41,235 nucleotides of DNA from a virus, in the UHGV virus genome UHGV-0192012, one strand, 5' to 3'. The notes beneath the pieces are model-generated. The model did not search any database. It worked only from the letters and a program-made list of their open reading frames with translations, and had not been told where the DNA came from. The position numbers and the translations under genes are program-made. This document shows positions 1 through 41,235 of this stretch, one piece after another (position 1 is the stretch's first letter; each line of letters starts with the position of its first letter).

Positions 1-261
1 TTGCCTAACGTAGAAGTGACCTCTACGGGCACTACCGACAGTTCTGGCGGGCATAGCCATAAAATCACAATTAAAGGAAACAACTCGCATGATGGTTCTG
101 GTATTGCATCATCGAGAGATGGAGATCAAGGTAATTACACTACCAGTACTGCTGGAAGCCATTGGCATAACGTCACTGTTTCCGGCTCATTCGGCGGTGG
201 TAAACCACACAACAATTTACCTCCATATCAAACAGTTTATCGGTGGGTCAGAACCGCTTAA
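1..261 (+). other. Silent tail-fibre C-terminal cassette 1B (direct orientation; begins at crossover site 41224 across the circular junction)
   Basis: No RBS or true start. Reads SESELPNVEVT...GGHSHKI...GSHWHNV...GGGKPHNNLPPYQTVYRWVRTA*, homologous to the C-terminus of 40348..41220 (PHNNMMPFEVIYRWKRTA). Confidence 0.9.
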
Positions 262-530
262 GCAGTCCGTTTCCAGCGATAAACAACTTCAAATGGCTGC
301 ATGTTGTTGTGCGGAGTCCCTTTCCCAGACACTCCAATTGTTATCGTATGATTATGCAAACCATCATCTGATGACTTATAAGAAATTTCAGGTTGCCCCT
401 TACCATTGCCCTGTGTATCAAGACTTTCACCACCACTGTTGTGGTCATCAGAGCCATATACTACGTGGTGATGTAATCCGGAGTTGCTACAAGTAGCCTC
501 GTGTTGATGTGGTCCATTTTCACTCTCAGA
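258..530 (-). other. Silent tail-fibre C-terminal cassette 1C (inverted)
   Basis: Manual translation of the minus strand 530->258: SESENGPHQHEATCSNSGLHHHVVYGSDDHNSGGESLDTQGNGKGQPEISYKSSDDGLHNHTITIGVSGKGTPHNNMQPFEVVYRWKRTA*. Begins at TCTGAGAGTGAA and shares the TTAA stop (258-261) with cassette 1B. Confidence 0.92.
519..530 (-). repeat. Shufflon-1 crossover site C (TCTGAGAGTGAA on minus strand)
   Basis: Inverted copy of TCTGAGAG(G/T)GA(A/G) also found at 40954-40965 and 41224-41235. Confidence 0.85.
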
Positions 531-546
531 GAAAAGGAGAAATCTT

Positions 547-1443
547 ATGATAAATAAATGTTTTGAATTTAAGGATTATAACCATAAAAGGTCTGAGCCA
601 AACTACACCACGGTAGCAGACTTTTACCGCTACTGTGACAATCAGAATAATGTATTGAAGTCACTCGCGGACTGTCTGCTTTGGCAACCATCTACTGACT
701 ACACTGTGGGACAGATAGTAAGAGCTCCGGGAATGCCAGTAGGGCATATAGCCAAGTGTACAACTGCCGGAAAATCATCTGAAGAAGAGCCTGCTTGGAC
801 AGATGGCGTGGTAACGGATGGCACAGCAAAATGGAGTGTGTATGATCCAGAAAGTGCAACAGATGACAAAATCACTACAGCCTCAAGCAAGAAGCTGGAT
901 AAGATTGGCGGGGCCATTACAGGACCTATATCCTATGATGGGACCCCTAAGACTGACATTGAACTTGTAAATAAATCTTACGTGTTGGCAGCCATAAAAT
1001 CCGCACTGGACGAAAGAACCAAGGCCATGTACCCGGTCGGATGCTATTTCTATTCCGATGACTCACGGGCTCCATCAGAGTACATTCCAGGGCTCGAGGG
1101 AACGACTTGGGAGCAGACGGCAGCGGGTCGCGTACTCATTGGTGCGGGTACTGCGGATAGCGGTACCGTGTACAATGCAGGTGATAAAGGCGGTGAAGAA
1201 AAGCACCCACTCACCCTTGATGAGTTGCCTAACGTAACAGGTAGTGTCGGCACGCTTGTTACCTGGGGGAACAACAAAAAGCAAAGTGGGTGCCTTTCTT
1301 ACACACAGACAACCACAAAATTCCCGTCGAGCGAAAGTGAGAATTGCTTTGGGGCTATCCTGAGTCTATCGTTTGGTAAAAACCTCGCCCATGAAAACAG
1401 ACCCCCATATAAAGTGGTGTATATTTTCTGTAGAACGGCATAA
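547..1443 (+). CDS. Tail fibre / receptor-binding protein 2 (constant region + expressed cassette 2A from 1213)
   Basis: AAGGAG RBS at 534-539. Paralogous to 40348..41220 (LWQP..Y..GQ motif; YPVG...GRVLIGAG...GDKGGEEKH collar-like motif; terminal ...PPYKVVYIFCRTA). Confidence 0.88.
   Translation: MINKCFEFKDYNHKRSEPNYTTVADFYRYCDNQNNVLKSLADCLLWQPSTDYTVGQIVRAPGMPVGHIAKCTTAGKSSEEEPAWTDGVVTDGTAKWSVYDPESATDDKITTASSKKLDKIGGAITGPISYDGTPKTDIELVNKSYVLAAIKSALDERTKAMYPVGCYFYSDDSRAPSEYIPGLEGTTWEQTAAGRVLIGAGTADSGTVYNAGDKGGEEKHPLTLDELPNVTGSVGTLVTWGNNKKQSGCLSYTQTTTKFPSSESENCFGAILSLSFGKNLAHENRPPYKVVYIFCRTA
1213..1224 (+). repeat. Shufflon-2 crossover site A (ACCCTTGATGAG, expressed locus)
   Basis: CCCTTGATGA recurs at 1444-1453 (+) and 1877-1886 (-). 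Here it lies within ACTCA-CCCTTGA-TGAGT, an inverted repeat around a 7-bp spacer. Confidence 0.88.
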
Positions 1444-1679
1444 CCCTTGATGAACTGGTTTCGCACGGTCACGCTATCCACTTTTACAATGACGATTGGA
1501 ACTCGTCTGACGGGAATGAAGGAAAATATAATCAGCCGGGTATTGTACACGATTCTGTTGACAGAAGCCCTAAAAATACAAATAGGTGGACTGACCTTGT
1601 AGAAAAAACCGGAGGAAACAAACCGTTTAACGTCATGCAGCCATATCAAGTAGTTTATATCTTCAGACGGTCCGTTTAA
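1443..1679 (+). other. Silent tail-fibre C-terminal cassette 2B (direct), starting at crossover site ACCCTTGATGAA
   Basis: Manual translation: TLDELVSHGHAIHFYNDDWNSSDGNEGKYNQPGIVHDSVDRSPKNTNRWTDLVEKTGGNKPFNVMQPYQVVYIFRRSV*. No start codon; the site overlaps the stop of 547..1443. Confidence 0.9.
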
Positions 1680-1887
1680 AGATATAAACAGTCTGATAAG
1701 GTTGCATAGTATTATGAGGTTTGCTTTTACCACTTGCCCCAATATAGTGAGTAAAACTGCCATCAACTGCCGTAGTATTAATATTTACAAGTCCCTGCTT
1801 CCAAACGTTATTATTCCCAGTTGGAACAGCGCAGAAGTTGTCATCTGTATACATCGTATGACTATGCTCAGCGTTTTCATCAAGGGG
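1663..1887 (-). other. Silent tail-fibre C-terminal cassette 2C (inverted), starting at crossover site CCCCTTGATGAA
   Basis: Minus strand 1887->1663: PLDENAEHSHTMYTDDNFCAVPTGNNNVWKQGLVNINTTAVDGSFTHYIGASGKSKPHNTMQPYQTVYIFKRTV*. Includes track ORF 1663..1854. Confidence 0.9.
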
Positions 1888-2039
1888 GAGGATGCTACTG
1901 ACTTATTCCCAGATAATTGACATTTTTATATGTTATTTATGTAGATTTTAGCTAACATTAAGCACGTATAAAGCACACGAAATTTACGGTAGTGTGTGGG
2001 AATACTGCACCTGTGCACTGTGTGTTAAGCACACGTTAT

Positions 2040-3011
2040 TCACACTTTATTGATGGCTTTTCGCAAGTCGGCCAAGGTTTTATGGGTGTAAACGCCTTTT
2101 GTCACTCCGATTCTAGCGTGTCCGAGTATCATCTTAACGGCAGTTTCATTAGCTCCAGACCGGTCTAGTAAGGTAGCCAGTGTGTGCCTGCATTCGTGAG
2201 GCGTATGATGCATTCCAAGCGTTTTCATAACTCGGTCAAAGAGTCTGCGAAACGCGTCATATTTTCCGTATGGGCAGATACAATCTTCTGCTTTTCGTTC
2301 AGCAAGAATATCAAATATTTTATTATGGATGGGTATTTTACGTACTCCTGCCAGAGTCTTACTCTTTTTTATATCTATATACCGCTGCCGGAGATTAATA
2401 TCTTTGGGCGTCAGCGCAAGGTACTCACCAACGCGCATCCCGGTGTATATAAGGATGAGCACATCTTTAACGCCGTCAACCGATTCTACAGCTCTCCACA
2501 GCTTACCTATCTGCCGTGCGGTGAACGGTCTTTTCGTATAGACGGGAACATGTCGGGGCAGCTCTATAAAACAGCTGAGGTTCGTTTCTACAATGCCGTT
2601 TTTTATGGAGTACTTGTAAAGCTGGCTAAGTAGCACACGGCACTTTTTGCGTGTACAGTAGCCGGCTTCGATGCCGTCTATGACATCCTGCAGCTGCTTG
2701 TACGTAATGCGCCGAAATGGCACAGAATGAAGTTGTGCAAGGTGCCTATAGCTGATTTCGTAGGCGGCCCGGGAAGATGGGCTGATGGATTCGAAATGGT
2801 GCAGGCTCCATGAGCGATAGACCGAAGAAAAAGTTACCTCCATTTCTGGTGTGATGCGATTCACGCTGACGAGGAAAGCGAATGCTTCCTCTCTGGTGGG
2901 AAAGTAGCCAAGTGGCTTCTGGCGGCCGTCAATCGTCTTTTTAACAACCCACGGCCTCCGCCGATTTCCTGTAAGCTTGTAAATTGAGCCATAACCATTT
3001 GGCAATCTCAT
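2040..3011 (-). CDS. Tyrosine recombinase, putative shufflon invertase
   Basis: Catalytic motifs TGMRVGE, KSKT, HECRHT, LGH and VYTH are all present. Adjacent to the invertible cassettes and distinct from the attP-linked integrase. Confidence 0.9.
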   Translation of the reverse strand: MRLPNGYGSIYKLTGNRRRPWVVKKTIDGRQKPLGYFPTREEAFAFLVSVNRITPEMEVTFSSVYRSWSLHHFESISPSSRAAYEISYRHLAQLHSVPFRRITYKQLQDVIDGIEAGYCTRKKCRVLLSQLYKYSIKNGIVETNLSCFIELPRHVPVYTKRPFTARQIGKLWRAVESVDGVKDVLILIYTGMRVGEYLALTPKDINLRQRYIDIKKSKTLAGVRKIPIHNKIFDILAERKAEDCICPYGKYDAFRRLFDRVMKTLGMHHTPHECRHTLATLLDRSGANETAVKMILGHARIGVTKGVYTHKTLADLRKAINKV

Positions 3012-3060
3012 AATTCTAAACCTCCTATATGGAGGTTATTTTAATGTATAAGGAGTTGTC

Positions 3061-3549
3061 ATGGACAATGTAATGGATACATTTCGTAATCTGGCGAATG
3101 ACATGGTAATAAAGCTCTTAGCGTCCTCCCTTCTGGTGGCGCTTTTTTACCATGCAGTGCTTTTCGGATTGTTCGGGTGCGTGGTCTTTCTGGACCTCTT
3201 TACGCGGTGGCTGGCGCTCAGCCATCAGCACCTGGTAACGCACAAGCAGGAGGCTACACTTGTAGATTGCTTATATGGGATACCCAGCGCACATAAGGCG
3301 GGCCTTATCAGCTCGTATGTCATGCGTAAGACTTTTTTTAGTAAAATGATTACTTATCTCTTACTCATTATTGGCGCCTCAATCGTGGATTACCTGATAA
3401 AAGGCTCCGGAGGGGGAGTCATGGCGGTGTCTCTGGTAATTACCTATCTCTCAATGACTGAGCTGCTTAGCATTGTTGAAAATTTGGATGAAGCCGGTGT
3501 GTCGGCAATGCACGATCTGATTGATTTGATTAAAGGGAGGCGGATGTAA
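3061..3549 (+). CDS. Phage holin (holin family 4 / toxin-secretion-lysis type)
   Basis: Multiple hydrophobic segments, LDLFT and ELLSIVENL..AGV motifs; directly upstream of the endolysin. Confidence 0.85.
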   Translation: MDNVMDTFRNLANDMVIKLLASSLLVALFYHAVLFGLFGCVVFLDLFTRWLALSHQHLVTHKQEATLVDCLYGIPSAHKAGLISSYVMRKTFFSKMITYLLLIIGASIVDYLIKGSGGGVMAVSLVITYLSMTELLSIVENLDEAGVSAMHDLIDLIKGRRM

Positions 3550-3551
3550 AT

Positions 3552-4127
3552 ATGCATGTAATTGATATCAGTGATTATCAGACTAATATAGATTGGTCTG
3601 AACTTAAAAAACATTGTGAAGGTGTGATTGTAAAGATTTCCGAAGGCTGTACCTTATCACGACTGCACGGTAAGCACATAGCGGCGGCGTCTGCCAGAGG
3701 CATTCCGTGGGGCGTGTATTGCTATACCCATGCTCAGACCGCTGCCAGAGCCAAGCAGGAAGCACAGACGGTCATCCAGGCACTGCGGGCACTTGGGTAT
3801 GGCAAGCCTAAACTGGGTGCGTGGATAGACATAGAAGACAGGAAAGTACTTTCCCTGTCTCCAGAAACTGTGACGGCCTGTGCCTCTGCTTTTATCTCAG
3901 CGCTTAATGGCGCGGGTGTAGAGGCCGGCATTTATGCAAGCCTTTCCACTTACAGAAGTAATCTCAAGATAGGGCTGCTTGCAGACTACGTACCATACTG
4001 GTGCGCTCAGTACTCTTCGAGATGTCGCTTCAAAGATTTTTTCCCACGGAAGAAGCTCCGAGGGTGGCAGTACACTGATGGCTACACCATCAATGGCAAA
4101 AAGTATGACCGAAATGAGTGGTATTGA
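3552..4127 (+). CDS. Endolysin, GH25 muramidase
   Basis: IDISDYQ, KISEG, GVYCY, WIDIE, WCAQY and WQYT motifs; catalytic domain only. Confidence 0.9.
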   Translation: MHVIDISDYQTNIDWSELKKHCEGVIVKISEGCTLSRLHGKHIAAASARGIPWGVYCYTHAQTAARAKQEAQTVIQALRALGYGKPKLGAWIDIEDRKVLSLSPETVTACASAFISALNGAGVEAGIYASLSTYRSNLKIGLLADYVPYWCAQYSSRCRFKDFFPRKKLRGWQYTDGYTINGKKYDRNEWY

Positions 4128-4265
4128 CGAAAAAGGCACTAAAAAAGACGCATTTTTCGCACGCTCCGCGATAAATATGTCATGGAACCAATAAAAATGC
4201 GTCTATGGTGCCTTTTTGTGCAAATTCTCAGTTAAAAATGGATTTTATCAGTTAAAGGAGGCAAA

Positions 4266-4939: not shown

Positions 4940-4995
4940 ACTCAAAATCTGCCGATAGCAATATCGTGTGGGTTCAAGTCCCACCTCCGGCACCA
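4940..4995 (+). tRNA. 3' half of tRNA-Leu(CAA) = attP core (partial, not a functional tRNA here)
   Basis: ACT-CAA-AATC anticodon loop, long variable arm (CGATAGCAATATCG), T-arm GTGGGTTCAAGTCCCAC, acceptor end ...GGCACCA; 5' half absent. Confidence 0.85.
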
Positions 4996-5000
4996 ATGTT

Positions 5001-5128: not shown

Positions 5129-6217
5129 TCATTTGGCTTCTCCCAATGTTCCTGCAACATCGGCAGCTTGTGCATCCATACCCGGAGAAACATGGCTGTA
5201 AGTATCCATTGTCGTAGCAAAAGAGGAATGGCCGAGCCTGTATTGAACAATTTTAAAATTTATCCCCTGCTCTATTAAAAATGTGGCGTGAGTATGTCTG
5301 AAACAATGAAAAGTAAACTCACCAAGTCCTGCCTCACGAAATACTTTTTTAACTGCTCTTGAAACATTATCCGGAGCAAGTGGGGTTAATGCCTGTGAAG
5401 GGAATACCAGGTTACAGGCTTTTGGCTTCCCAAGCTTAAGGCCCAGCTCATTACAGTAAATGCGTTGTGTATGCAGTAAATGAACTAATGCATCGGAGAT
5501 TGTGATAGTACGGCGTGAGCTTTTTGTCTTTGTCGTTGGCGAGATCACCGCGGAGTTTCCCATCAGAGCCAGTACAGTCTGATTTACAGATACGGTTTTA
5601 TGCTTAAAATCGACATCCTGCCAGCGAAGACCAAGAATTTCTGACCGGCGCATACCAGTCTGAAGGGCAAATGTACAAAGTCTTGCAAGCATAGGATCAT
5701 GCAAATGATTGAAGAATTGAATAATTTGCTCCCTGTTTAAAGCTTTCGCTTCCTTCCTGTGCTGTTTTACCCTACGCACCGCAAGCAGTGGGTTAGAAGG
5801 GATAATACCGTCAAAAACAGCCTGCTTAAGTGCAGAGCTTACCACTGTATGAAAGTAATTTACTGTTCTTGGAGATAAGCCTCTATCTAACATTTGTTGC
5901 TGTTTTATCCTGAAAAGTGCAGGAGTTAATTGATCCATAAGCGTCTGCCCGAATGGTGAGACTAAAAGATGTGTATTCAATACCCCGAAGTAGGAACGAT
6001 AAGTATTTTCTGTTATGCTACTACGCATACCGTCTAACCATGCACTGCACCATTCAGCAAGCGTGATTTTTTCGTCAATCAAGGGGAAATCATTAAGTCT
6101 GGAGAGGTAAGTGTCTCGCTTTTCTTCTGCTTCTCTTTTAGTTTTACCGTAGAAGAATTTCCGCTTCCCCGCAACGGTAGCAGAAACGCAATAGCGATTA
6201 TCTTTTCTTTTAGCCAT
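5129..6217 (-). CDS. int: Phage integrase (tyrosine recombinase)
   Basis: N-terminal arm-binding region (KRKFFYGKTKREAEEK), TGMRRSE, TTKT, HCFRHT, LGH, TYSH; adjacent to attP. Confidence 0.95.
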   Translation of the reverse strand: MAKRKDNRYCVSATVAGKRKFFYGKTKREAEEKRDTYLSRLNDFPLIDEKITLAEWCSAWLDGMRSSITENTYRSYFGVLNTHLLVSPFGQTLMDQLTPALFRIKQQQMLDRGLSPRTVNYFHTVVSSALKQAVFDGIIPSNPLLAVRRVKQHRKEAKALNREQIIQFFNHLHDPMLARLCTFALQTGMRRSEILGLRWQDVDFKHKTVSVNQTVLALMGNSAVISPTTKTKSSRRTITISDALVHLLHTQRIYCNELGLKLGKPKACNLVFPSQALTPLAPDNVSRAVKKVFREAGLGEFTFHCFRHTHATFLIEQGINFKIVQYRLGHSSFATTMDTYSHVSPGMDAQAADVAGTLGEAK

Positions 6218-6524: not shown

Positions 6525-7274
6525 TTAATAAGTTATCCTCATATGTAAAACCCCTGGTAAGCCTATTCTTAAACTCATTAAGTTCCCGCGCCATATGCTT
6601 ATTAACCCCATGTATTTTTTATGATGATCAGATTTGCGGTAAATAATTTCGGCAGCGGTTTGTCCGGTAATGGCATAATGAAATTTATTTTGAACCATAG
6701 CATAGAAATTTTTTGTTATTGGAGATTGTGAATCATAATCTGTGGAACATTCCGCAAAAATATCAGTAATCTTCTGATAGATTCTACGTTCGCTGGCACG
6801 AATGGAACGAACGCGTTCCAGCAATTCATCAAAATAATCTTTTCCGGTAACACGGCCATTCTTGAGCATATCATCATTCAGAACAAAGCCCTTGACAATA
6901 TATTCCTTTAGCGTTTGGGTTGCCCATATTCTGAATTTCGTGGCCTCTTTACTATTAACACGATATCCCACAGAAATGATTGCATCGAGATTATAATAAT
7001 TGATAATTTTATGCTGTGTTTTTCCAGCAATTGCGCCATGTTTAGTGGTTATTGCGATTTTTGCAATAACCACTTCTTTCGCTAATTCTCCCTCTTTGAA
7101 AATATTGCTTAAATGTCTATTAACCGTGGAAAGGGAAACATTGAAAAGCCTCGCAATATCTTTCTGTGGCATCCAGAAAGTTTCATCTTTATATAAAACA
7201 TTGATACTCTGATTCCCTTCATCAGTCTGATAAAGGATAATTTGTTTTTCGATTGGCGATAATTTATTATTCAT
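6525..7274 (-). pseudogene. rhuM: RhuM-family protein, C-terminally truncated
   Basis: Typical RhuM motifs (YNLDAIISVGYRVNS, FRIWAT, KGFVLND, DYFDELLERVRSIRASERR, VQNKFHYAITGQTAAEII). Similarity stops abruptly after YMGL. Confidence 0.75.
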
Positions 7275-7999: not shown

Positions 8000-8107
8000 A
8001 TAATACTATGATTTTACGCGCAAAGCAACGAAAACGTTACGTGTTAAGTAAAAAGTTTCTTGACATGAAACACAATCTGACGTATTATAAGTTACGTAAG
8101 GCGTTAC
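8000..8107. promoter_or_regulatory. Lysis/lysogeny switch: divergent promoters and operators
   Basis: Rightward TTGACA(8060-8065)-17-TATTAT(8083-8088); leftward TTGCTT(8028-8023)-17-TATTAT(8005-8000). GTTWC-N7-GWAAC-like operators at 8013-8029, 8036-8052, 8055-8071 and 8091-8107. Confidence 0.8.
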
Positions 8108-8132
8108 TTTTGGAGCGAAAGAAGGTGAGAAA

Positions 8133-8348
8133 ATGATTGACAGAAAACGCTTAATAGGAGTTATTTATTCAAGGGGGCTGACACAGTCCAAAGTTGCGAC
8201 AAATATTGGTATTTCTAGCAAAACCTTTTATCACAAGATGAAAACTGGGGTATTTGGTAGCGATGAAATCTATAAGATGAAGACGCTTCTTTCCATCCCT
8301 GATGAAGAAATGACTCCTATTTTTTTTACAAATAAAGTTACGCAGTAA
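8133..8348 (+). CDS. Cro-like HTH regulator
   Basis: 71 aa HTH (LTQSKVATNIGISSKTFYHK), divergent from the repressor. Confidence 0.88.
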   Translation: MIDRKRLIGVIYSRGLTQSKVATNIGISSKTFYHKMKTGVFGSDEIYKMKTLLSIPDEEMTPIFFTNKVTQ

Positions 8349-8353
8349 GTAAC
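8337..8353. promoter_or_regulatory. Distal operator GTTAC-N7-GTAAC at the end of cro
   Basis: Perfect palindromic match to the switch-region operator consensus. Confidence 0.65.
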
Positions 8354-8389
8354 TTTAGAGGAGGAAAACATCAAAGGAGGAGAAATGGA

Positions 8390-8710
8390 ATGACACCAGA
8401 TGTATGGAAAATTAACCACTATGGGTTTGAGTTATACGACAAGATTTTGGCTTATGACGCACCAGAAAGCACAAGCATTTTATCTTTAAATGAAATCGGG
8501 TATAAAACGCTGGAATATAGAAATTATGTTTTAGCAGCCGCACCGGTTATAAGTAATGGATTCCCACAGTGGGTTGGCATGGTCTACAAAATGTACACAG
8601 CCAACGACCCGGAAGGCATCGAAATCACAAAGATTGGCAACGCAGAATATAAATATCCAGAACATGCGCTCCAGTGGGGCATGGATTGGGTAGAAGGGAG
8701 GAACGAATGA
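8390..8710 (+). CDS. Hypothetical phage protein
   Basis: ORF with GGAG RBS; ATGA overlap with the next gene. Confidence 0.7.
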   Translation: MTPDVWKINHYGFELYDKILAYDAPESTSILSLNEIGYKTLEYRNYVLAAAPVISNGFPQWVGMVYKMYTANDPEGIEITKIGNAEYKYPEHALQWGMDWVEGRNE

Positions 8711-9441
8711 CTAACTTAGTAGAAATCAAAAATAACCAAGTTGTGGTTGACAGCAGAAGCGTGGCTAAAAATTTTGGTAAGCAGAATCAGCACGTTAACA
8801 GAGATATTGAAAATCTTATAAAAAAAGATGCGTCCAAAATTGGACGGATGTTTTACAAAGTTGAAATTCCTGATGTATATGGCCGACTTCAGAAGACCTA
8901 CTACATGAACCGTGACGGATTTAGCTTGCTGGTTATGGGCTTCACCGGAAAAGAAGCCATTGAATGGAAGCTCAAATATATTGAGGCCTTCAATGAGATG
9001 GAAAAGAAGCTCAAGAATCCGCTGGCCCTGCCGAACTTCAGCAATCCGGCAGAAGCTGCCAGAGCATGGGCAGACCAGTTCGAAAAGCGCAAGCAGGCCG
9101 AAGCCCTGAACGAGGCCAACCGCCCGAAGGTAATCTTCGCGGAGGCAGTAAGCGCTTCCCATTCGTCCATTCTCATCGGAGATCTGGCAAAAATCCTGAG
9201 AGGCAACGGCGTGAACATCGGGCAGAGACGCCTTTTCCAGTGGATGAGAGACCACGGCTACCTTATCAAGCAGAAAGGGGCAAGCTACAACATGCCTACA
9301 CAGCGAGCCATGGATATGGGACTTTTCAGGGTCAAGGAAGGAACCTACATCAATGGCAGCGGAGCGAATATAGTCACCAAAACAACCAAGGTGACCGGTC
9401 GAGGTCAGCAGTTTTTCATCAATAAGTTTTTGAAGGGATAA
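8707..9441 (+). CDS. Phage antirepressor (Rha N-terminal + ANT/KilAC C-terminal)
   Basis: DSRSVAKNFGK, YYMNRDGFSLLVMGFTG, WKLKYIEAFNEME (Rha); PKVIFAEAV, IGQRRLFQWMR, KVTGRGQQFF (KilAC). Start moved to ATG 8707. Confidence 0.92.
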   Translation: MTNLVEIKNNQVVVDSRSVAKNFGKQNQHVNRDIENLIKKDASKIGRMFYKVEIPDVYGRLQKTYYMNRDGFSLLVMGFTGKEAIEWKLKYIEAFNEMEKKLKNPLALPNFSNPAEAARAWADQFEKRKQAEALNEANRPKVIFAEAVSASHSSILIGDLAKILRGNGVNIGQRRLFQWMRDHGYLIKQKGASYNMPTQRAMDMGLFRVKEGTYINGSGANIVTKTTKVTGRGQQFFINKFLKG

Positions 9442-24724: not shown

Positions 24725-26173
24725 ATGGCAGATATTACTAAAGCAACTGCTGAAACGTTAAAAGAGCGTGAGGCAAGGGATAGGGCGCTCAGGGCGTTTA
24801 ATCCGTCGTTTGACAGGTATAGGCTTCTTAAAGATGCCTACTATGGTGTTGGATTGTTCGAACACGGGGCGGGCCTTCGCAGACATCCTCGGGAATCCAT
24901 GGAGAACTTCAGGGACCGTCAGGCGCTGGCATATTACTGGAATTATACAGGGCCTATCATCAATGCCTATGTAGACCCGATTTACAAGGATGAAATCCGC
25001 AGGGAATATAAAGATTCTGAAATGTTTGACCGCTTTTTAAGTGACTGCGACAGAGCGGGGACGACATATCAGGATTTCTGCAAGGATGCGGCATTAGCGG
25101 CAAAATTGTATGGCGTGGCTTATGTTGTAGTAGACAACAGTAATGTGATGGCTGACAGCTTAGGGGATGCGCTCAGCAACAGACAGCTCCCTTTCTTAAA
25201 GCTTGTAACACCAGATATGATAAAAGACTGGACAATAGATGTTTTTGGGCGTTTGTACAGTTTTTCTTATACAGAAACTATTCAGACGGGAAGGAATCGT
25301 TCAGAAGAAATTACCTATATATGGACTCCTGACGAATGGTCAATAAGTACTAACGGTAATACCATAAGCGGCGCTCATAATTTAGGCCGGGTACCAGTAG
25401 TACAGTGGAGAGCCAGAAATACCAAACTTACAGTTATCAAACCTCCTTCTGAATTTCTTTCTGTAGCGCAGGCTAATTATTTCCTGTTTCAATTATGCTC
25501 GTGGCATACACAGATTTTGAGAGACCAGGCATTTAATATTCTGACCATGCCGGATACTGGTTCCACCGATATTACTGTAGGGACTAATAATGTACTGACG
25601 TATCCGCCGGAATCCAATCACACGCCGGCATTCATCAGCCCGGCTGCGGCTCCAGCGGAAATGTTGACCTCTCAGATGGATAGGACGATTCAGGAAATGT
25701 TCCGGATGTCCGGGCTTAATTCCGTTATCGGCTTACAGACAGATCAGTCTAAATCCGGTGTAGCTAAGCAGTGGGATTTCGAAACAACTAACCGCAGGCT
25801 TGCGGGATTTTCTGCAAGGTGCGAAAAGGCAGATGCGGCCATTGTGGCTCTCTATGAACTCTGGTCTGGGGATACTATAGATTATCATTGCGAGTATCCA
25901 AAAGACTTCAGGATTAACGATGTAGCGGACAGCCTGGCAGAAGCACAGACTGCACTTGAACTTGGGTTTGACACCCCGACCTACAAGAAGGAAGTTCTGA
26001 AGAAGGTGCTGGAAGCATACATGCCAAATCTGGAACCAGAAACTTACGATGCTATTGTTAATGAAGTAGAGGATGCGGCTAATCAGGCAGTCAGGGACAA
26101 TGTGTATGGCGCAGAAGGGGATGAGCCAGTAGATGCGGTTGACGAAGGCACAGAAGGCAGCCCGACAGTTTGA
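24725..26173 (+). CDS. Portal protein
   Basis: 482 aa directly after terL; SGVAK.WDF motif; synteny. Confidence 0.85.
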   Translation: MADITKATAETLKEREARDRALRAFNPSFDRYRLLKDAYYGVGLFEHGAGLRRHPRESMENFRDRQALAYYWNYTGPIINAYVDPIYKDEIRREYKDSEMFDRFLSDCDRAGTTYQDFCKDAALAAKLYGVAYVVVDNSNVMADSLGDALSNRQLPFLKLVTPDMIKDWTIDVFGRLYSFSYTETIQTGRNRSEEITYIWTPDEWSISTNGNTISGAHNLGRVPVVQWRARNTKLTVIKPPSEFLSVAQANYFLFQLCSWHTQILRDQAFNILTMPDTGSTDITVGTNNVLTYPPESNHTPAFISPAAAPAEMLTSQMDRTIQEMFRMSGLNSVIGLQTDQSKSGVAKQWDFETTNRRLAGFSARCEKADAAIVALYELWSGDTIDYHCEYPKDFRINDVADSLAEAQTALELGFDTPTYKKEVLKKVLEAYMPNLEPETYDAIVNEVEDAANQAVRDNVYGAEGDEPVDAVDEGTEGSPTV

Positions 26174-27683
26174 GAAGGCAATCCATAAGTACCTTGAGCA
26201 GGGATATACTGAACGCGAAGCCGTAGATAAAGCCTATAAAGAATTTCCTGTTATGAAGATCATGCAGAACGAAATACAGGGCAATCTGGCATCCACTATG
26301 ATAAAAGCCTCTGTTGGAACCATCACATTGAATGAAGCCCGGCGGGCAACCAGAATGGCATGGGCTAAAGACGACCTTACTCTGTCGGAAAGAACAACTA
26401 AAGGCGGAAAAATGGTACAGACCATGACCGCCAAGGCAATTCAGGATGCCATAAAGCAGGGGAAGAGTTTAAAAAAATTATCCCTTGATATATTTAACGG
26501 ATATACTGTTGGAGGCGTTATACCTACACAGGATATTCCTAAATGTATAGCAGAATTAACTATCATTGCAAAACTTAAAAAGGATACAGGTTCTAAACTA
26601 TACAGGCAGGCGCTTTCCAAGGTAAGAAATCATCTTAAACGAGTAAACAAGCCGGGCATGAAAGCAGCATACAAACAACTGGTGAAAGCTATTGATTCGC
26701 TGGATGAGGCTAAAATCCACAAGGCAATACACGTTGCTGCTTATGAAAAAACACGATACTTTGCTGAACGAATAGCCAGAACTGAGACTTCCCGGGCGTG
26801 GAATGCCGGAGTGTTTCGAAGATGGGCCGAGGATACCGACTGTGTTGCTTTCCAATGGAAATTATCTACAGCTCATCCGGTGACAGATATATGTGACCTG
26901 TATGCTCATGCGAATCTATATGGAATGGGCCCGGGGATATTCCCAAAGGATAAGGTGCCAGTATTACCTGCCCATCCGAACTGCATGTGCAGGCTTAGGC
27001 CTGTTATGACCGGTTCAGATTTACTTCAGACAGAACATGCAGAGGATATGGTAAATAAAGGTGGGGCGGATTATCTGAAAAAGTCCAGCGCAGAAACACG
27101 AAAGAAGATACTTGGGGTTAAAGGTGCAGAGTCCTTTGAAATGGGCAAGGTTGTAGACTGGAGAGGAATAGCTCACGGTTTTACTGACGAGCATATGACT
27201 ACAAGATTTAAAGTCAGGCATAAAGTACAATCTGTTTATGGATTGTACATGAGTTCAGCGGCTCCCGGGGGAGGAGATATACTATATGATGTAAACTATA
27301 GACCAAATAAGCATCGTGACGAAATCAAAGTGGCTGGAATACTAAATTCTGTTTTAGGTGGAGATATTACGTTATTGGAAGAGGTTAATACCCCAGGCAC
27401 TAAAAGACCAGATTATGTATGGCGTGGTAAGATGTGGGAGCTGAAAACTGTATCCAGTGAAAAAGCCGCTGATCGAGCCATACGAAAAGGAGTCAAGCAA
27501 ATTGCAAAAAATCCTGGTGGAATTATATTAAATTTTGGTGAAAATACTTTTAGTACCAAACAATGTAAGAATGTCATTATTGATAGACTTAAGCGAAGTG
27601 AAATTAAAACAACTATCGATATAATTGTTTTAAAGCAGGATAAGATACTTAATATATTCCGGTATAAAAAGCAAAAAAGATGA
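26133..27683 (+). CDS. MuF / SPP1 gp7-like head morphogenesis protein with C-terminal nuclease-like (CdiA tRNase-type) extension
   Basis: ERIARTE, DICD, PAHPNCMC (MuF); C-terminal ~150 aa with HRDE...KRPDYVWRGKMWELK (PD-(D/E)xK-like). Confidence 0.8.
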   Translation: MRLTKAQKAARQFEKAIHKYLEQGYTEREAVDKAYKEFPVMKIMQNEIQGNLASTMIKASVGTITLNEARRATRMAWAKDDLTLSERTTKGGKMVQTMTAKAIQDAIKQGKSLKKLSLDIFNGYTVGGVIPTQDIPKCIAELTIIAKLKKDTGSKLYRQALSKVRNHLKRVNKPGMKAAYKQLVKAIDSLDEAKIHKAIHVAAYEKTRYFAERIARTETSRAWNAGVFRRWAEDTDCVAFQWKLSTAHPVTDICDLYAHANLYGMGPGIFPKDKVPVLPAHPNCMCRLRPVMTGSDLLQTEHAEDMVNKGGADYLKKSSAETRKKILGVKGAESFEMGKVVDWRGIAHGFTDEHMTTRFKVRHKVQSVYGLYMSSAAPGGGDILYDVNYRPNKHRDEIKVAGILNSVLGGDITLLEEVNTPGTKRPDYVWRGKMWELKTVSSEKAADRAIRKGVKQIAKNPGGIILNFGENTFSTKQCKNVIIDRLKRSEIKTTIDIIVLKQDKILNIFRYKKQKR

Positions 27684-39600: not shown

Positions 39601-40348
39601 CGATTTAATACAGGAAAACGTGATATGGCACAAAGACTTCAAGGAAAATAGCTGGAGTGGGTTAAATCATACTGGCACAGTTCTTTCGGATGGAAACATA
39701 CACCCTGTAAATACCACTAATATGTGGAGTAATGCTAACGATTATAAATGGATTTCAGCTGAAAGTTTACAATGGAAATCTTCGTTTAAACAGATTAATG
39801 CAAAAGCGGAATTTACCACTCCGGTGTCGGGGCAGTTCTGGCTGAACGTAAAGCTGGATGGGCCCGCTTTAATCAGCTACCGCAAAGCGTTGGATGCTTC
39901 CGTGTGGAATGATACAGAAAATAACAATGGGTTCTGGCCAGATGATATGGGGTCAGGTCAGTGGAACAACGAAGCCTCCATGTGGATTCCTTATAGTGAC
40001 CGGGTCAATGTCAGCGCAGGGGATATGATTGAACTTAACATTGATTCTTCTAATGGGAAAAATACACAAACCGTTATTAAATCCATAGATGCTTATATAG
40101 ACGTTCCCGACCTGTTTAAGCATTTCGAGGATTTTTCCGTACCTGTTACGGGAATAGAATTACCAATTGGAATAGCGTACTATCACACCACCGCGGTAAG
40201 GCTGGATAGCGTAACGGATAGCACAGCCACGATGGTTAAGTTCATTTCCCGCACGCCATGTGTCGTTCAATTATTAGACAGCACAGGGAAAGCAGTTTCT
40301 GGAACGGCAGATATCACATGGCAAGGGTATAGAAAGGAGATTTTGTAA
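36647..40348 (+). CDS. Tail tip / host specificity protein (lambda gpI-J-like)
   Basis: 1233 aa; PLLYG, LAEGPV, NNPAW..YDL, LFTVANV, IGDVI, FN3-like repeats. Confidence 0.9.
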   Translation: MIHVIIVDNPFDRRQRRDYFAPFENGKKVSDYHKETGEKVYAINGIPCTADTVPIDGQEVIVMPYVSGGSFKKVFGWVAAIGITVLSAGVGAGIIGASTMSVWARLGITMALSYIGNGIMSKLTPKPKVDKSNTEQSNTYGWGEPQSITSQGYPLPLLYGRMKTAGIMLQRHVISNGEKQYLNILYCLAEGPVDAIENIQLNDNPISNYSDVQVEKRYGTNTQTVISNFNDSYSDTPLAYELKPERGWYTVKLDGNMAQAVELTIAFPAGLYYNNDEGGTDATSVRIAAQIRKVGTDTWYDLPIPNENQDDGSRKSLRKQWRRASNNGTTISWTDWYRQKTTIRDEGIIRYNQNNAFYRTYGFYDLSPAQYEVRMRCVAKDGTSIRYVNKVQWSAVTQVIYDDFIHPGKALLGIRALATDQLSGNDPQMTCEVVRNKVQVWNPLTSAYEEQPANNPAWAAYDLVHRCTKVDTVSGGTSYVVDGVSKDNMDYYAFKAWADACNNAKIEFNYLYDSAMTLWDALEYPCRVGHGAVMVAGTKFTCVYDYASEPVQLFTVANVKKDSLSTEYQSTDSRANAIEISFINRDKNYERDVLTVYGDSYDDDETTQKPTQIELMGCTSAQQAYKYGKYYLRSNKYEIRTVSFEAYVDAIACSIGDVILVQTDAVSWGLGGRIKSVEGTVLTLDQVPDEEYTTILIRDNATDKIYTTAVTAIDGTKATVESTNGASAGAVYALGETGNKARKFKVLTIDKGMQEQTRTITAVEYYDELYNSDGDILPVIEEYDSDVPAPKNLVLTTESYVEADGTLTNLVHCAWVNPRQYAQVKMEVSSDGGDTWSYETEFKLGESSYVFKGLSLCTYGVRIYSINDVGKESSKVTNYIITDGKDNPPPDIVSISTEQLSSGIRRFWWDFTYPYPNDIAGFRLKYTQGKELNWGTGIPVQDGLVTQQPYETQAIRQGSHAIMIKAVDNGGNESKSFAYALLDVGDLIQENVIWHKDFKENSWSGLNHTGTVLSDGNIHPVNTTNMWSNANDYKWISAESLQWKSSFKQINAKAEFTTPVSGQFWLNVKLDGPALISYRKALDASVWNDTENNNGFWPDDMGSGQWNNEASMWIPYSDRVNVSAGDMIELNIDSSNGKNTQTVIKSIDAYIDVPDLFKHFEDFSVPVTGIELPIGIAYYHTTAVRLDSVTDSTATMVKFISRTPCVVQLLDSTGKAVSGTADITWQGYRKEIL

Positions 40349-41220
40349 TGGCTATAAGTAAATATATAAGTACTGACGGGATGCTGAACTATGAAGGAAG
40401 CTCCTCTCCCACTACACAACAGCAGTATCAGGAAATGATTAAATCATGGGATGCTACTTTCCAGAATCTTTTGGATGCCGGGCACCTCTGGCAACCGGGT
40501 AAAGATTATCTGATAAATCAAGTGGTGGAAAGTCCATCTATGATCCCCAACACAGTAGCTAAGGTTACTACCCCAGGAACCTCCGGAATTACAGAACCTA
40601 CGTGGGGAGCTGTTGGAGACACAGTGGCGGACGGAACGGTGAGCTATTTGATAGTAGCCAAAACCACAGAAACAGCTACAGCAGACGATGTAAGTGCAGG
40701 CACAGATAAGTATAAGGCCATAACTCCCGCCGTCATGGCTGACCTTTTGAAAGATATCTACAAGCAGGCCAAGCTTGACGCCCATCCTGTAGGTAGTATT
40801 TACGAATCTACAGATTCGACTTCCCCAGCTGCCCTGTTCGGCGGTACGTGGGAAGCCATGGACCCAGGACGTGTGCTGGTATCCGCAGGTACTGCAAGCA
40901 CTGGGACTGTGTATAACGCCGGGGACAAAGGCGGGGAAGAAAAGCATCAACTCTCTGAGAGGGAATCACCACCACATACACACTCCGGTAGAACTAATAC
41001 AGACGGTTCTCATTCACACGGTTATATAGTCTCTACCTCAGCCGATGCGGGAGGTGGTTACCACATTAGAAAAACGAAATCGGCAACAATAGAAACATGG
41101 AACACCAGCGCTTCAGGAAATCATTCACATTCTTTTGTTACAGATGCCAGTGGTGGGAATCAGCCACATAACAATATGATGCCGTTCGAAGTTATATACC
41201 GTTGGAAACGTACTGCGTAA
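40348..41220 (+). CDS. Tail fibre / receptor-binding protein 1 (constant region + expressed cassette 1A from 40954)
   Basis: HPVGSIY...PAALFGGTWE...GRVLVSAG...GDKGGEEKH collar-like motif; HxH motifs (HTH, HSH, HSH); ends PHNNMMPFEVIYRWKRTA. Confidence 0.9.
   Translation: MAISKYISTDGMLNYEGSSSPTTQQQYQEMIKSWDATFQNLLDAGHLWQPGKDYLINQVVESPSMIPNTVAKVTTPGTSGITEPTWGAVGDTVADGTVSYLIVAKTTETATADDVSAGTDKYKAITPAVMADLLKDIYKQAKLDAHPVGSIYESTDSTSPAALFGGTWEAMDPGRVLVSAGTASTGTVYNAGDKGGEEKHQLSERESPPHTHSGRTNTDGSHSHGYIVSTSADAGGGYHIRKTKSATIETWNTSASGNHSHSFVTDASGGNQPHNNMMPFEVIYRWKRTA
40954..40965 (+). repeat. Shufflon-1 crossover site A (TCTGAGAGGGAA, expressed locus)
   Basis: Matches 41224-41235 (+) and 519-530 (-) in the same reading frame (S-E-x-E). 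Confidence 0.85.
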
Positions 41221-41223
41221 TGG

Positions 41224-41235
41224 TCTGAGAGTGAG
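41224..41235 (+). repeat. Shufflon-1 crossover site B (TCTGAGAGTGAG)
   Basis: 3 nt after the stop of 40348..41220; in frame with cassette 1..261 on circularisation. Confidence 0.85.

Follow-up and report, generated by a model that had tools for sequence, protein, structure and literature searches.

How could a single recombinase vary two neighbouring tail-fibre genes, each followed by its own silent cassettes, without mixing the two sets? The question is raised by a double shufflon in UHGV-0192012, a virus genome of 41,235 nucleotides (nt) that was analysed as one stretch and is called the window here. In order, the locus consists of fibre gene 1 (constant part followed by >1A), >1B, <1C, fibre gene 2 (constant part followed by >2A), >2B, <2C, and a tyrosine recombinase. 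Genes 1 and 2 are paralogues whose constant parts are 36% identical, and the cassettes of the window are 23-42% identical to one another. The locus is probably best explained by one recombinase acting on arms shared by both arrays and on spacers that are incompatible between them, giving two fibre tips that switch independently. An earlier note on this DNA had placed six cassettes and their sites, and they lie where it put them; all sites are in frame after GDKGGEEKHxL and every cassette ends in an N..P(Y/F)..(V/I)Y.(W/F).R(T/S)(A/V) tail followed by a stop codon, again as described. The join of position 41235 to position 1, which had been assumed, is borne out by an alignment of 41225-529 in one piece to 4149-4688 of L031 (80%), and by a contig from run X3 that equals window 1-188 with 0 differences and is followed by 1A-end-like sequence (L denotes fetched relative loci, X runs and their contigs, and P database protein homologues). 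The statement that silent cassettes have no start codon needs qualification: none has a 5' start of its own, but codon 5 of 1B is an in-frame TTG, and internal start-like codons are present in the other silent cassettes.

The two arrays differ in the core of their crossover sites. Repeats had been proposed as the sites, and they are located as described, but the invariant unit is a 7-bp spacer, CTGAGAG in array 1 and CCCTTGA in array 2, lying one base inside the limits first given. In the window, TCTGAGAG occurs at 40954+, 41224+ and 530-, and CCCTTGATGA at 1214+, 1444+ and 1886-. With a GAR extension, each site motif is present in exactly three copies in the whole circular window, where about 0.01 copies per motif are expected by chance (maximum 1 in 2000 simulated sequences of the 3.9-kb locus), and two different 7-mer+N+GAR motifs with three copies each arose in 0 of 1000 simulated sequences. 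Across the loci of the family, 93 of 98 cassette-anchored sites match the 7-mer of their own array exactly, and of the five that do not, two were picked wrongly, in cassettes of L013 and L006 that are truncated. The base before the 7-mer varies within 20 of 27 arrays and the base after it within 14, while the synonymous positions inside are fixed within arrays; the lack of variation inside the spacer follows by construction in this count, so that the evidence lies in the flank counts and in the comparison of the 98 sites. Because the adjoining bases vary and the internal synonymous positions do not, the spacer length is taken as 7 bp.

The right arm, [TGA]GAR(T/C/A)T.., is common to both arrays, degenerate, and doubles as codons. 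The left arm is variable except at the coding expression sites, where it is conserved and in part mirrors the right arm; dyad matches between the two arms average 4.3 of 7 at expression sites, 2.0 at internal sites and 3.0 at terminal sites. Spacers of array 1 and array 2 differ at 3-6 of the 7 bases in 14 of 14 two-array loci, and at least 13 natural spacers are found on the shared arm across the family. The arrays are most likely kept apart by these different 7-bp spacers, as judged from the sequences.

Inversion at the sites named by the earlier note is seen at both arrays in related genomes and runs. Cassette orders, which the note had suggested comparing, differ across related phage genomes, with breakpoints at the predicted spacers. 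The contigs come from 6 different runs of 24 listed, four runs being compared with window 1-4200 and four with L031; the evidence for inversion thus comes from relatives, at most 36% of the words sampled from the window being present in any run. A contig from X4 reads constant2>2B<2C<2A, one of the four predicted isomers, through joints 1212/1443, 1443/1886 and 1224/1877, and its 2A shows 0 differences from the window. In a contig from X1 the B-C segment is flipped (joint 1454/1875), and contigs from X3 stop at each of the three sites of array 2, where they show alternative flanks, and likewise at array 1 sites (mapped on L031). At array 1, X5 also has an opposite-strand joint, 4145/4981 on L031, linking constant1 to the terminal cassette of L031. 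Two other readings of single joints were rejected. The 1212/1443 joint, which skips 230, could have been a deletion of 2A, but in X4 the 2A cassette lies inverted later in the same contig; the same joint in X3 has only 18 bases on its short side. Joint 1214/172 in X6 could have been a cross-array recombination, but its loose end is the gene 1 constant part (40879-40908) misplaced on gene 2. No cross-array joint at sites was found among the listed joints of the runs mapped on the window and L031.

Cassettes that are silent in the window are joined to constant parts elsewhere. A 1B-like tip is expressed in L031 and P0138, 1C-like tips in P0123, P0137 and P0142, 2B in X4, L030 and L031, and 2C in L040, while the counterpart of the window's expressed 1A is silent, inverted and terminal in L030 (93% identity). 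L017 and L046 (Megasphaera massiliensis NP3, same phage) differ at both arrays, and they have identical recombinases and the same variable middle in each of the six cassettes. Three inversions, each between sites with the same spacer, convert L017 into one of its 16 isomers that matches L046 in 3400 of 3400 aligned columns (99.97%), and the next-best isomer aligns over 2656 columns. The nine tip pairings foreseen for the window are recovered by computation, with inversion-only moves reaching 16 DNA isomers and 9 protein pairs. In each array B and C form one two-headed segment and A a one-headed segment, giving four isomers and three expressible tips, with the A tip expressed in two of the four. 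Separately from these joints, two contigs of run X1 connect several hundred bases of phage (window 65-561 and 2552-2905) to a loose end that resembles a CRISPR repeat of type I-E; these junctions might reflect very long spacers, chimeric assembly or a CRISPR-linked capture.

After duplicates (L008, L010, L034, L035) and distant single genes (L033, L041-L044) were dropped, the two-array layout was counted in 14 loci: the window, L009, L012, L013, L015, L017, L020, L030, L031, L036, L045, L046, L052 and L055, of which L031 and L036 are truncated where their contigs end. One array is present in eight loci whose recombinases belong to the same clade (L001-L005, L007, L014, L054). The largest member, L055 (1819-6278), has 4 cassettes for gene 1 and 7 for gene 2, with spacers CTACCGA and CTGTCGG; its array 1, like that of L003, has back-to-back internal sites. 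The cassettes are partitioned between the arrays throughout: similar cassette pairs number 28 within array 1 and 18 within array 2, with 0 across arrays (46 of 46 within their own array). Database homologues of gene 1 carry tips matching array 1 cassettes in 23 of 25 cases and array 2 cassettes in none, and those of gene 2 match array 2 cassettes in 17 of 47 cases and array 1 cassettes in none, the other 30 matching neither library. The N-terminal 150 amino acids of gene 2 (93-97% identical) are also fused to unrelated non-shufflon C-termini in P0045, P0046, P0047 and P0048, which indicates that whole distal modules are swapped by other means too.

The recombinase is of the tyrosine type (PF00589), with catalytic residues R193, H272, R275, H298 and Y308, and it ends 15 residues after Y308, at 323 amino acids, without the extra C-terminal domain that Rci has. 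Residues 1-80 gave no Pfam match, and the protein aligns end to end with phage integrases. The prophage integrase (5129-6217) is a separate gene, at best about 25% identical to the other rows of the tree described next; reading the recombinase as a second integrase was rejected, since its more distant homologues (34-44% identity, counted below) nearly all lack cassettes and the integrase has its own att-like (attachment) site. In a quick tree of 42 recombinases, 22 cassette-linked ones, including that of the window, form one clade (support of 99 in the Shimodaira-Hasegawa-like approximate likelihood ratio test, SH-aLRT), and two-array loci occur in each main branch of it, consistent with an ancestral double layout. 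Among 400 Negativicutes genomes, 46 have a homologue of the recombinase at E<=1e-55, and only six matches, in five of these genomes, reach at least 56% identity. The loci of 20 of the 62 Negativicutes matches were examined. Cassettes were found at 1 of the 9 examined matches at 41-44% identity with about 6 kb of flank, leaving 8 of 9 without them, and none were found beside homologues at 34-41%.

Loss of cassettes and loss of the recombinase go together in the family: fibre-gene relatives without silent cassettes (L032, L037, L038, L027) have no whole recombinase, which is either absent or a fragment. N-terminal recombinase fragments remain in L016, L027, L029 and L038, where the cassettes are gone or replaced, as in decayed shufflons. 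In L045 (M. hexanoica MH), the recombinase at 8001-8966 has one internal TAG while both arrays are intact, possibly a frozen switch or a sequencing error. At L063 (4181-5960), the recombinase next to a single array of three cassettes is 42% identical and falls among integrase-like proteins without cassettes; an integrase may have been recruited as invertase a second time here. Around the recombinase of the window, a promoter scan was at chance level (3 against 3.0 expected). The 49 bp that separate the recombinase from the divergent holin include a hairpin of 7 pairs (3019-3037), which spans the recombinase's AGGAGG-like ribosome site and could limit translation of the recombinase or end transcription.

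The constant part of gene 1 (residues 1-202) consists of a helix, a carbohydrate-binding-like module and a T4 gp10/gp12-type collar, and the C-terminal Gp10_C domain of the gene 1 protein matches Pfam at E 7e-20. Residues 137-290 are 39.6% identical to KVP40 gp12 (E 2e-19), and T4-like gp12 short tail fibres are the best annotated relatives. Sequence searches with gene 1 and gene 2 against solved structures returned nothing at E<=1. The single-chain model of gene 1 has a mean predicted local distance difference test (pLDDT) score of 78 and a predicted template modelling (pTM) score of 0.40; Foldseek returned no match to it at E<=0.001, the best hit being T4 gp10 at 0.05. VIA matches to T4 gp11/gp10 (47-57 residues, Z 5.0-5.4) and to a tailspike module (55 residues, Z 6.5) stay below the mark of 8 set for VIA and are not counted as proof. 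Three copies of residues 140-290 were predicted as a homotrimer with a score of 0.85 against 0.00 for the best control, with pLDDT of at least 87 and agreement between runs in at least 92% of contacts; 20 of 30 solved pairs attain the mark applied, as does 1 of 23 single chains, and likeness to solved T4-type trimers may contribute to the score. In the model, residues of about 231-247, the variable middle, are outside the list of interface residues, as expected for a distal tip. The single-chain model of gene 2 is of low confidence, with a mean pLDDT of 55.8. The tips probably bind receptors, such that a change of tip alters the host surface that is bound, as suggested by the predicted distal position and the sequence variation.

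Taken as a mechanism, each array is laid out as constant>A>B<C with one spacer, and breakpoints in the relatives fall at these spacers. The recombinase would bind the right arm common to both arrays, and strand exchange would require spacer identity, a step drawn from tyrosine-recombinase biology and R64 sfx. Given a shared right arm and a need for identical spacers, one enzyme could act on both arrays and still keep them separate. Deletion between direct sites is probably made less likely by the variability of the left arms. Each gene is predicted to form a homotrimer, in which the constant part would make up most of the collar, the conserved cassette tail would close it, and the variable middle would be the distal tip. 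A lysogen population would then hold mixed isomers and release virions with different tip pairs, and such mixed tips may hedge bets against variation in the surface of a diderm Negativicutes host. The broader proposition, that a Negativicutes phage family carries two independent tail-tip shufflons, under one integrase-derived recombinase, insulated only by codon-embedded 7-bp spacers and setting host range combinatorially, has about an even chance of being right.

Several observations weigh against strict insulation by spacers under one enzyme. Mixed orientations within a metagenome run may reflect mixed strains, and arrays without an A-type cassette (L030 array 2, L040) fit occasional deletion, although direct sites persist in many loci, with up to 7 cassettes. 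The tip classes of the arrays differ, those of array 1 having 85-107 amino acids and mostly 2-3 HxH motifs and those of array 2 having 62-90 amino acids and 0-1 HxH, so that selection or protein fit alone could keep the tips apart. This would suit a recombinase that inverts both arrays and tolerates spacer mismatch, with cross-array products being purged because gene 2 is flipped or the tips misfit the collar. Such an enzyme would also account for the mixing of spacers within an array, seen at two internal sites of L013 array 2 that differ from the array spacer by 2 bases and at one site of L036 array 2 that is off by 1 base, and for gene 2 homologue P0021, which carries the array 1-type TESE peptide (1 of 40 homologues with a parsed site). 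Immediately past their differing spacers, 1B and 2A are identical over 16 bases (window 41232-12 and 1221-1236), a possible trace of arm conversion between the arrays or an optimal binding arm. Cross-recognition of non-cognate sfx sites is reported in PMC11852207. Insulation between the arrays is therefore not absolute, given these few exceptions. A tolerant enzyme is nevertheless unlikely, as it leaves unexplained why synonymous spacer positions are fixed within arrays next to bases that vary, why a spacer common to both arrays occurs in 0 of 14 two-array loci, and why the listed joints include none across arrays at the sites.

Two further explanations are less probable still. A different enzyme, such as a host Xer-type recombinase or the prophage integrase, might invert one or both arrays, with the product of 2040-3011 serving array 2 only or having another job. 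The recombinase is tied by position only to array 2, its closest relatives (76-80%) include six single-array loci, both arrays are kept beside the interrupted recombinase of M. hexanoica, and in L063 cassettes lie beside a recombinase outside the clade. This explanation is nonetheless improbable in view of the identical right-arm consensus of both arrays, the single cassette-linked recombinase in each two-array locus, the loss of silent cassettes alongside loss or truncation of the recombinase, and the differences at both arrays between L017 and L046. It is more improbable again that the genes encode structural baseplate or collar parts in which the variable region, in one or both, does not determine host range. 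The family name in Pfam refers to baseplate gp10, the searches of solved structures by sequence and by Foldseek gave the null results above, and the gene 2 model is poor; however, the nearest annotated relatives of gene 1 residues 137-290 are short tail fibres, the variable middle is predicted outside the trimer interface, and many divergent tips on near-identical constant parts fit receptor-driven selection. One recombinase with shared arms and incompatible spacers thus remains the preferred explanation.

Coordinates of the double shufflon and of neighbouring features in the window
Feature	Position	Strand	Basis
Fibre gene 1, 290 amino acids, constant part and expressed cassette 1A	40348..41220	+	Pfam Gp10_C, PHROG tail/tail fibre, KVP40 gp12 match, homotrimer model
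Array 1 expression site, 7-bp spacer CTGAGAG	40955..40961	+	
Silent cassette 1B, start; internal site spacer 41225-41231; crosses circular join	41224..41235	+	
Silent cassette 1B, remainder, 90 amino acids in all	1..261	+	
Silent cassette 1C; terminal site spacer 523-529; tail-to-tail with 1B	258..530	-	
Shine-Dalgarno-like AAGGAG of gene 2, within the fixed left arm of the array 1 terminal site	534..539	+	sequence
Fibre gene 2, 298 amino acids, with expressed cassette 2A	547..1443	+	Pfam Gp10_C E 9e-13, PHROG tail
Array 2 expression site, 7-bp spacer CCCTTGA	1214..1220	+	
Silent cassette 2B; internal site spacer 1444-1450	1443..1679	+	
Silent cassette 2C; terminal site spacer 1880-1886	1663..1887	-	
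Tyrosine recombinase, 323 amino acids, likely invertase	2040..3011	-	Pfam PF00589, R193/H272/R275/H298/Y308
attP-like stretch beside integrase; context, outside the shufflon	4971..4998	+	sequence
Prophage integrase, 362 amino acids; context	5129..6217	-	Pfam, PHROG, clusters

The window holds the whole 41-kb genome of a temperate, siphophage-like virus by Pfam and PHROG annotation, with genes for an integrase, a cI-like repressor, DNA polymerase A, terminase, portal, capsid, tape measure, holin and a GH25 lysin, and with tail tip genes like lambda gpL/gpK/gpJ. The double shufflon sits between gpJ and the holin and is split by the ends of the window. Integrase, capsid and polymerase share 90% clusters with proteins named after Allisonella histaminiformans, a member of the Negativicutes that is Dialister histaminiformans in current NCBI naming, and Allisonella (Dialister) histaminiformans is probably the host. 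The attP-like stretch is one that we take to resemble the 3' end of a transfer RNA (tRNA); no whole tRNA was found. Elsewhere in the genome, a RhuM-family gene lies at 6525-7274, between integrase and repressor, and 26133-27683 encodes a MuF-like head-morphogenesis protein of 516 amino acids with a C-terminal CdiA_C match (E 5e-6), which looks like a phage-borne polymorphic antibacterial toxin fusion.

The earlier note did not recognise the two-locus layout under one recombinase as described before, and this two-array design appears new. It overlooked that a phage tyrosine invertase shuffling the tips of a receptor-binding protein has been published, namely the Rin shufflon of Bifidobacterium prophages, with one array (PMC6109161), and has a counterpart in Eggerthella lenta (PMC8778435). 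A two-array phage shufflon, or any shufflon in Negativicutes, was not found in the literature searched, outside of which most subscription papers lie; one may be listed in the supplements to PMC9881135, which surveyed 35,366 species, and the accessible parts of PMC11375127 and 10.1101/606087 hold nothing on such a system. As in Rin, a temperate gut phage has a tyrosine recombinase that adjoins the array and is distinct from the integrase, a constant tail-protein N-terminus is combined with start-less variable C-termini, and the repeats are short and asymmetric, one within the gene and one just past it, with isomers found across genomes. Unlike Rin, with its one array and one site type, there are two genes here, each with an array and a spacer of its own. 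Rin tips resemble TP901-1 receptor-binding protein heads or H-type lectins, and the Rin constant part resembles the receptor-binding protein of phage 1358, whereas the matches found here point to collar and needle parts of the T4 gp10/gp12 type. An N-terminal arm domain is described as lacking in Rin; the recombinase here aligns over its full length with phage integrases but has no Pfam match in residues 1-80. The hosts are Bifidobacterium on the one side and likely a Negativicute on the other.

The R64/IncI shufflon (Rci, sfx) is alike in its tyrosine invertase, in sites made of a 7-bp spacer, a conserved right arm and a variable left arm, and in swapping the C-termini of an adhesin (PMC11852207, PMC4176322). 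It differs in its target, the plasmid-borne PilV rather than phage tail genes, in having one array with one spacer, and in the extra C-terminal domain of Rci, and its right arm is unlike the degenerate, coding arm found here. The system thus works in its mechanism like Rin and R64, but departs from Rin in having two arrays and from R64 in both enzyme and target. BV01-like phages of Phocaeicola vulgatus are also temperate gut phages with multi-cassette inversion at the 3' end of a tail-fibre gene, with all configurations present in reads (PMC13596623, a preprint); their shufflon has one gene, one 10-bp motif and six variants, as opposed to two genes and two spacers. Mu Gin, P1 Cin and p15B Min switch a tail-fibre C-terminus by inversion as well (PMC6109161), but are serine invertases with one invertible locus, and not a tyrosine recombinase with R-H-R-H-Y. 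One tyrosine recombinase with more than one set of sites and combinatorial variation is known for HvsR of Mycoplasma pulmonis (cited in PMC2268961) and PsrA of Streptococcus pneumoniae (PMC7096588), but these loci are chromosomal and concern surface proteins or hsdS, not phage fibres or tandem arrays that differ only in a 7-bp spacer.

Published phage shufflons that were found vary one receptor-binding protein. With two arrays, about 1.5 kb of cassettes would yield the product of the tip numbers, not their sum, and the layout suggests that phages of the diderm Negativicutes, a little-studied group, have two adsorption proteins, each tuned independently. With natural spacers on a shared arm, it becomes testable how tyrosine invertases without the C-terminal domain of Rci choose partners and avoid deletion, and whether one enzyme shuffles orthogonal arrays, which a screen of Rci homologues did not obtain (PMC11852207). 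The nearest design in that respect is synthetic: engineered incompatible lox arrays, in which several cassette arrays are shuffled independently by one enzyme via spacer incompatibility (PMC4176322). These have symmetric sites and also delete, whereas the phage arrays, if the broader proposition given above is right, would be their natural, asymmetric and inversion-biased equivalent. They would offer 9 tip pairs in the window and 4 x 7 = 28 in L055, and their sites would be a set ready for orthogonal shuffling by a single enzyme.

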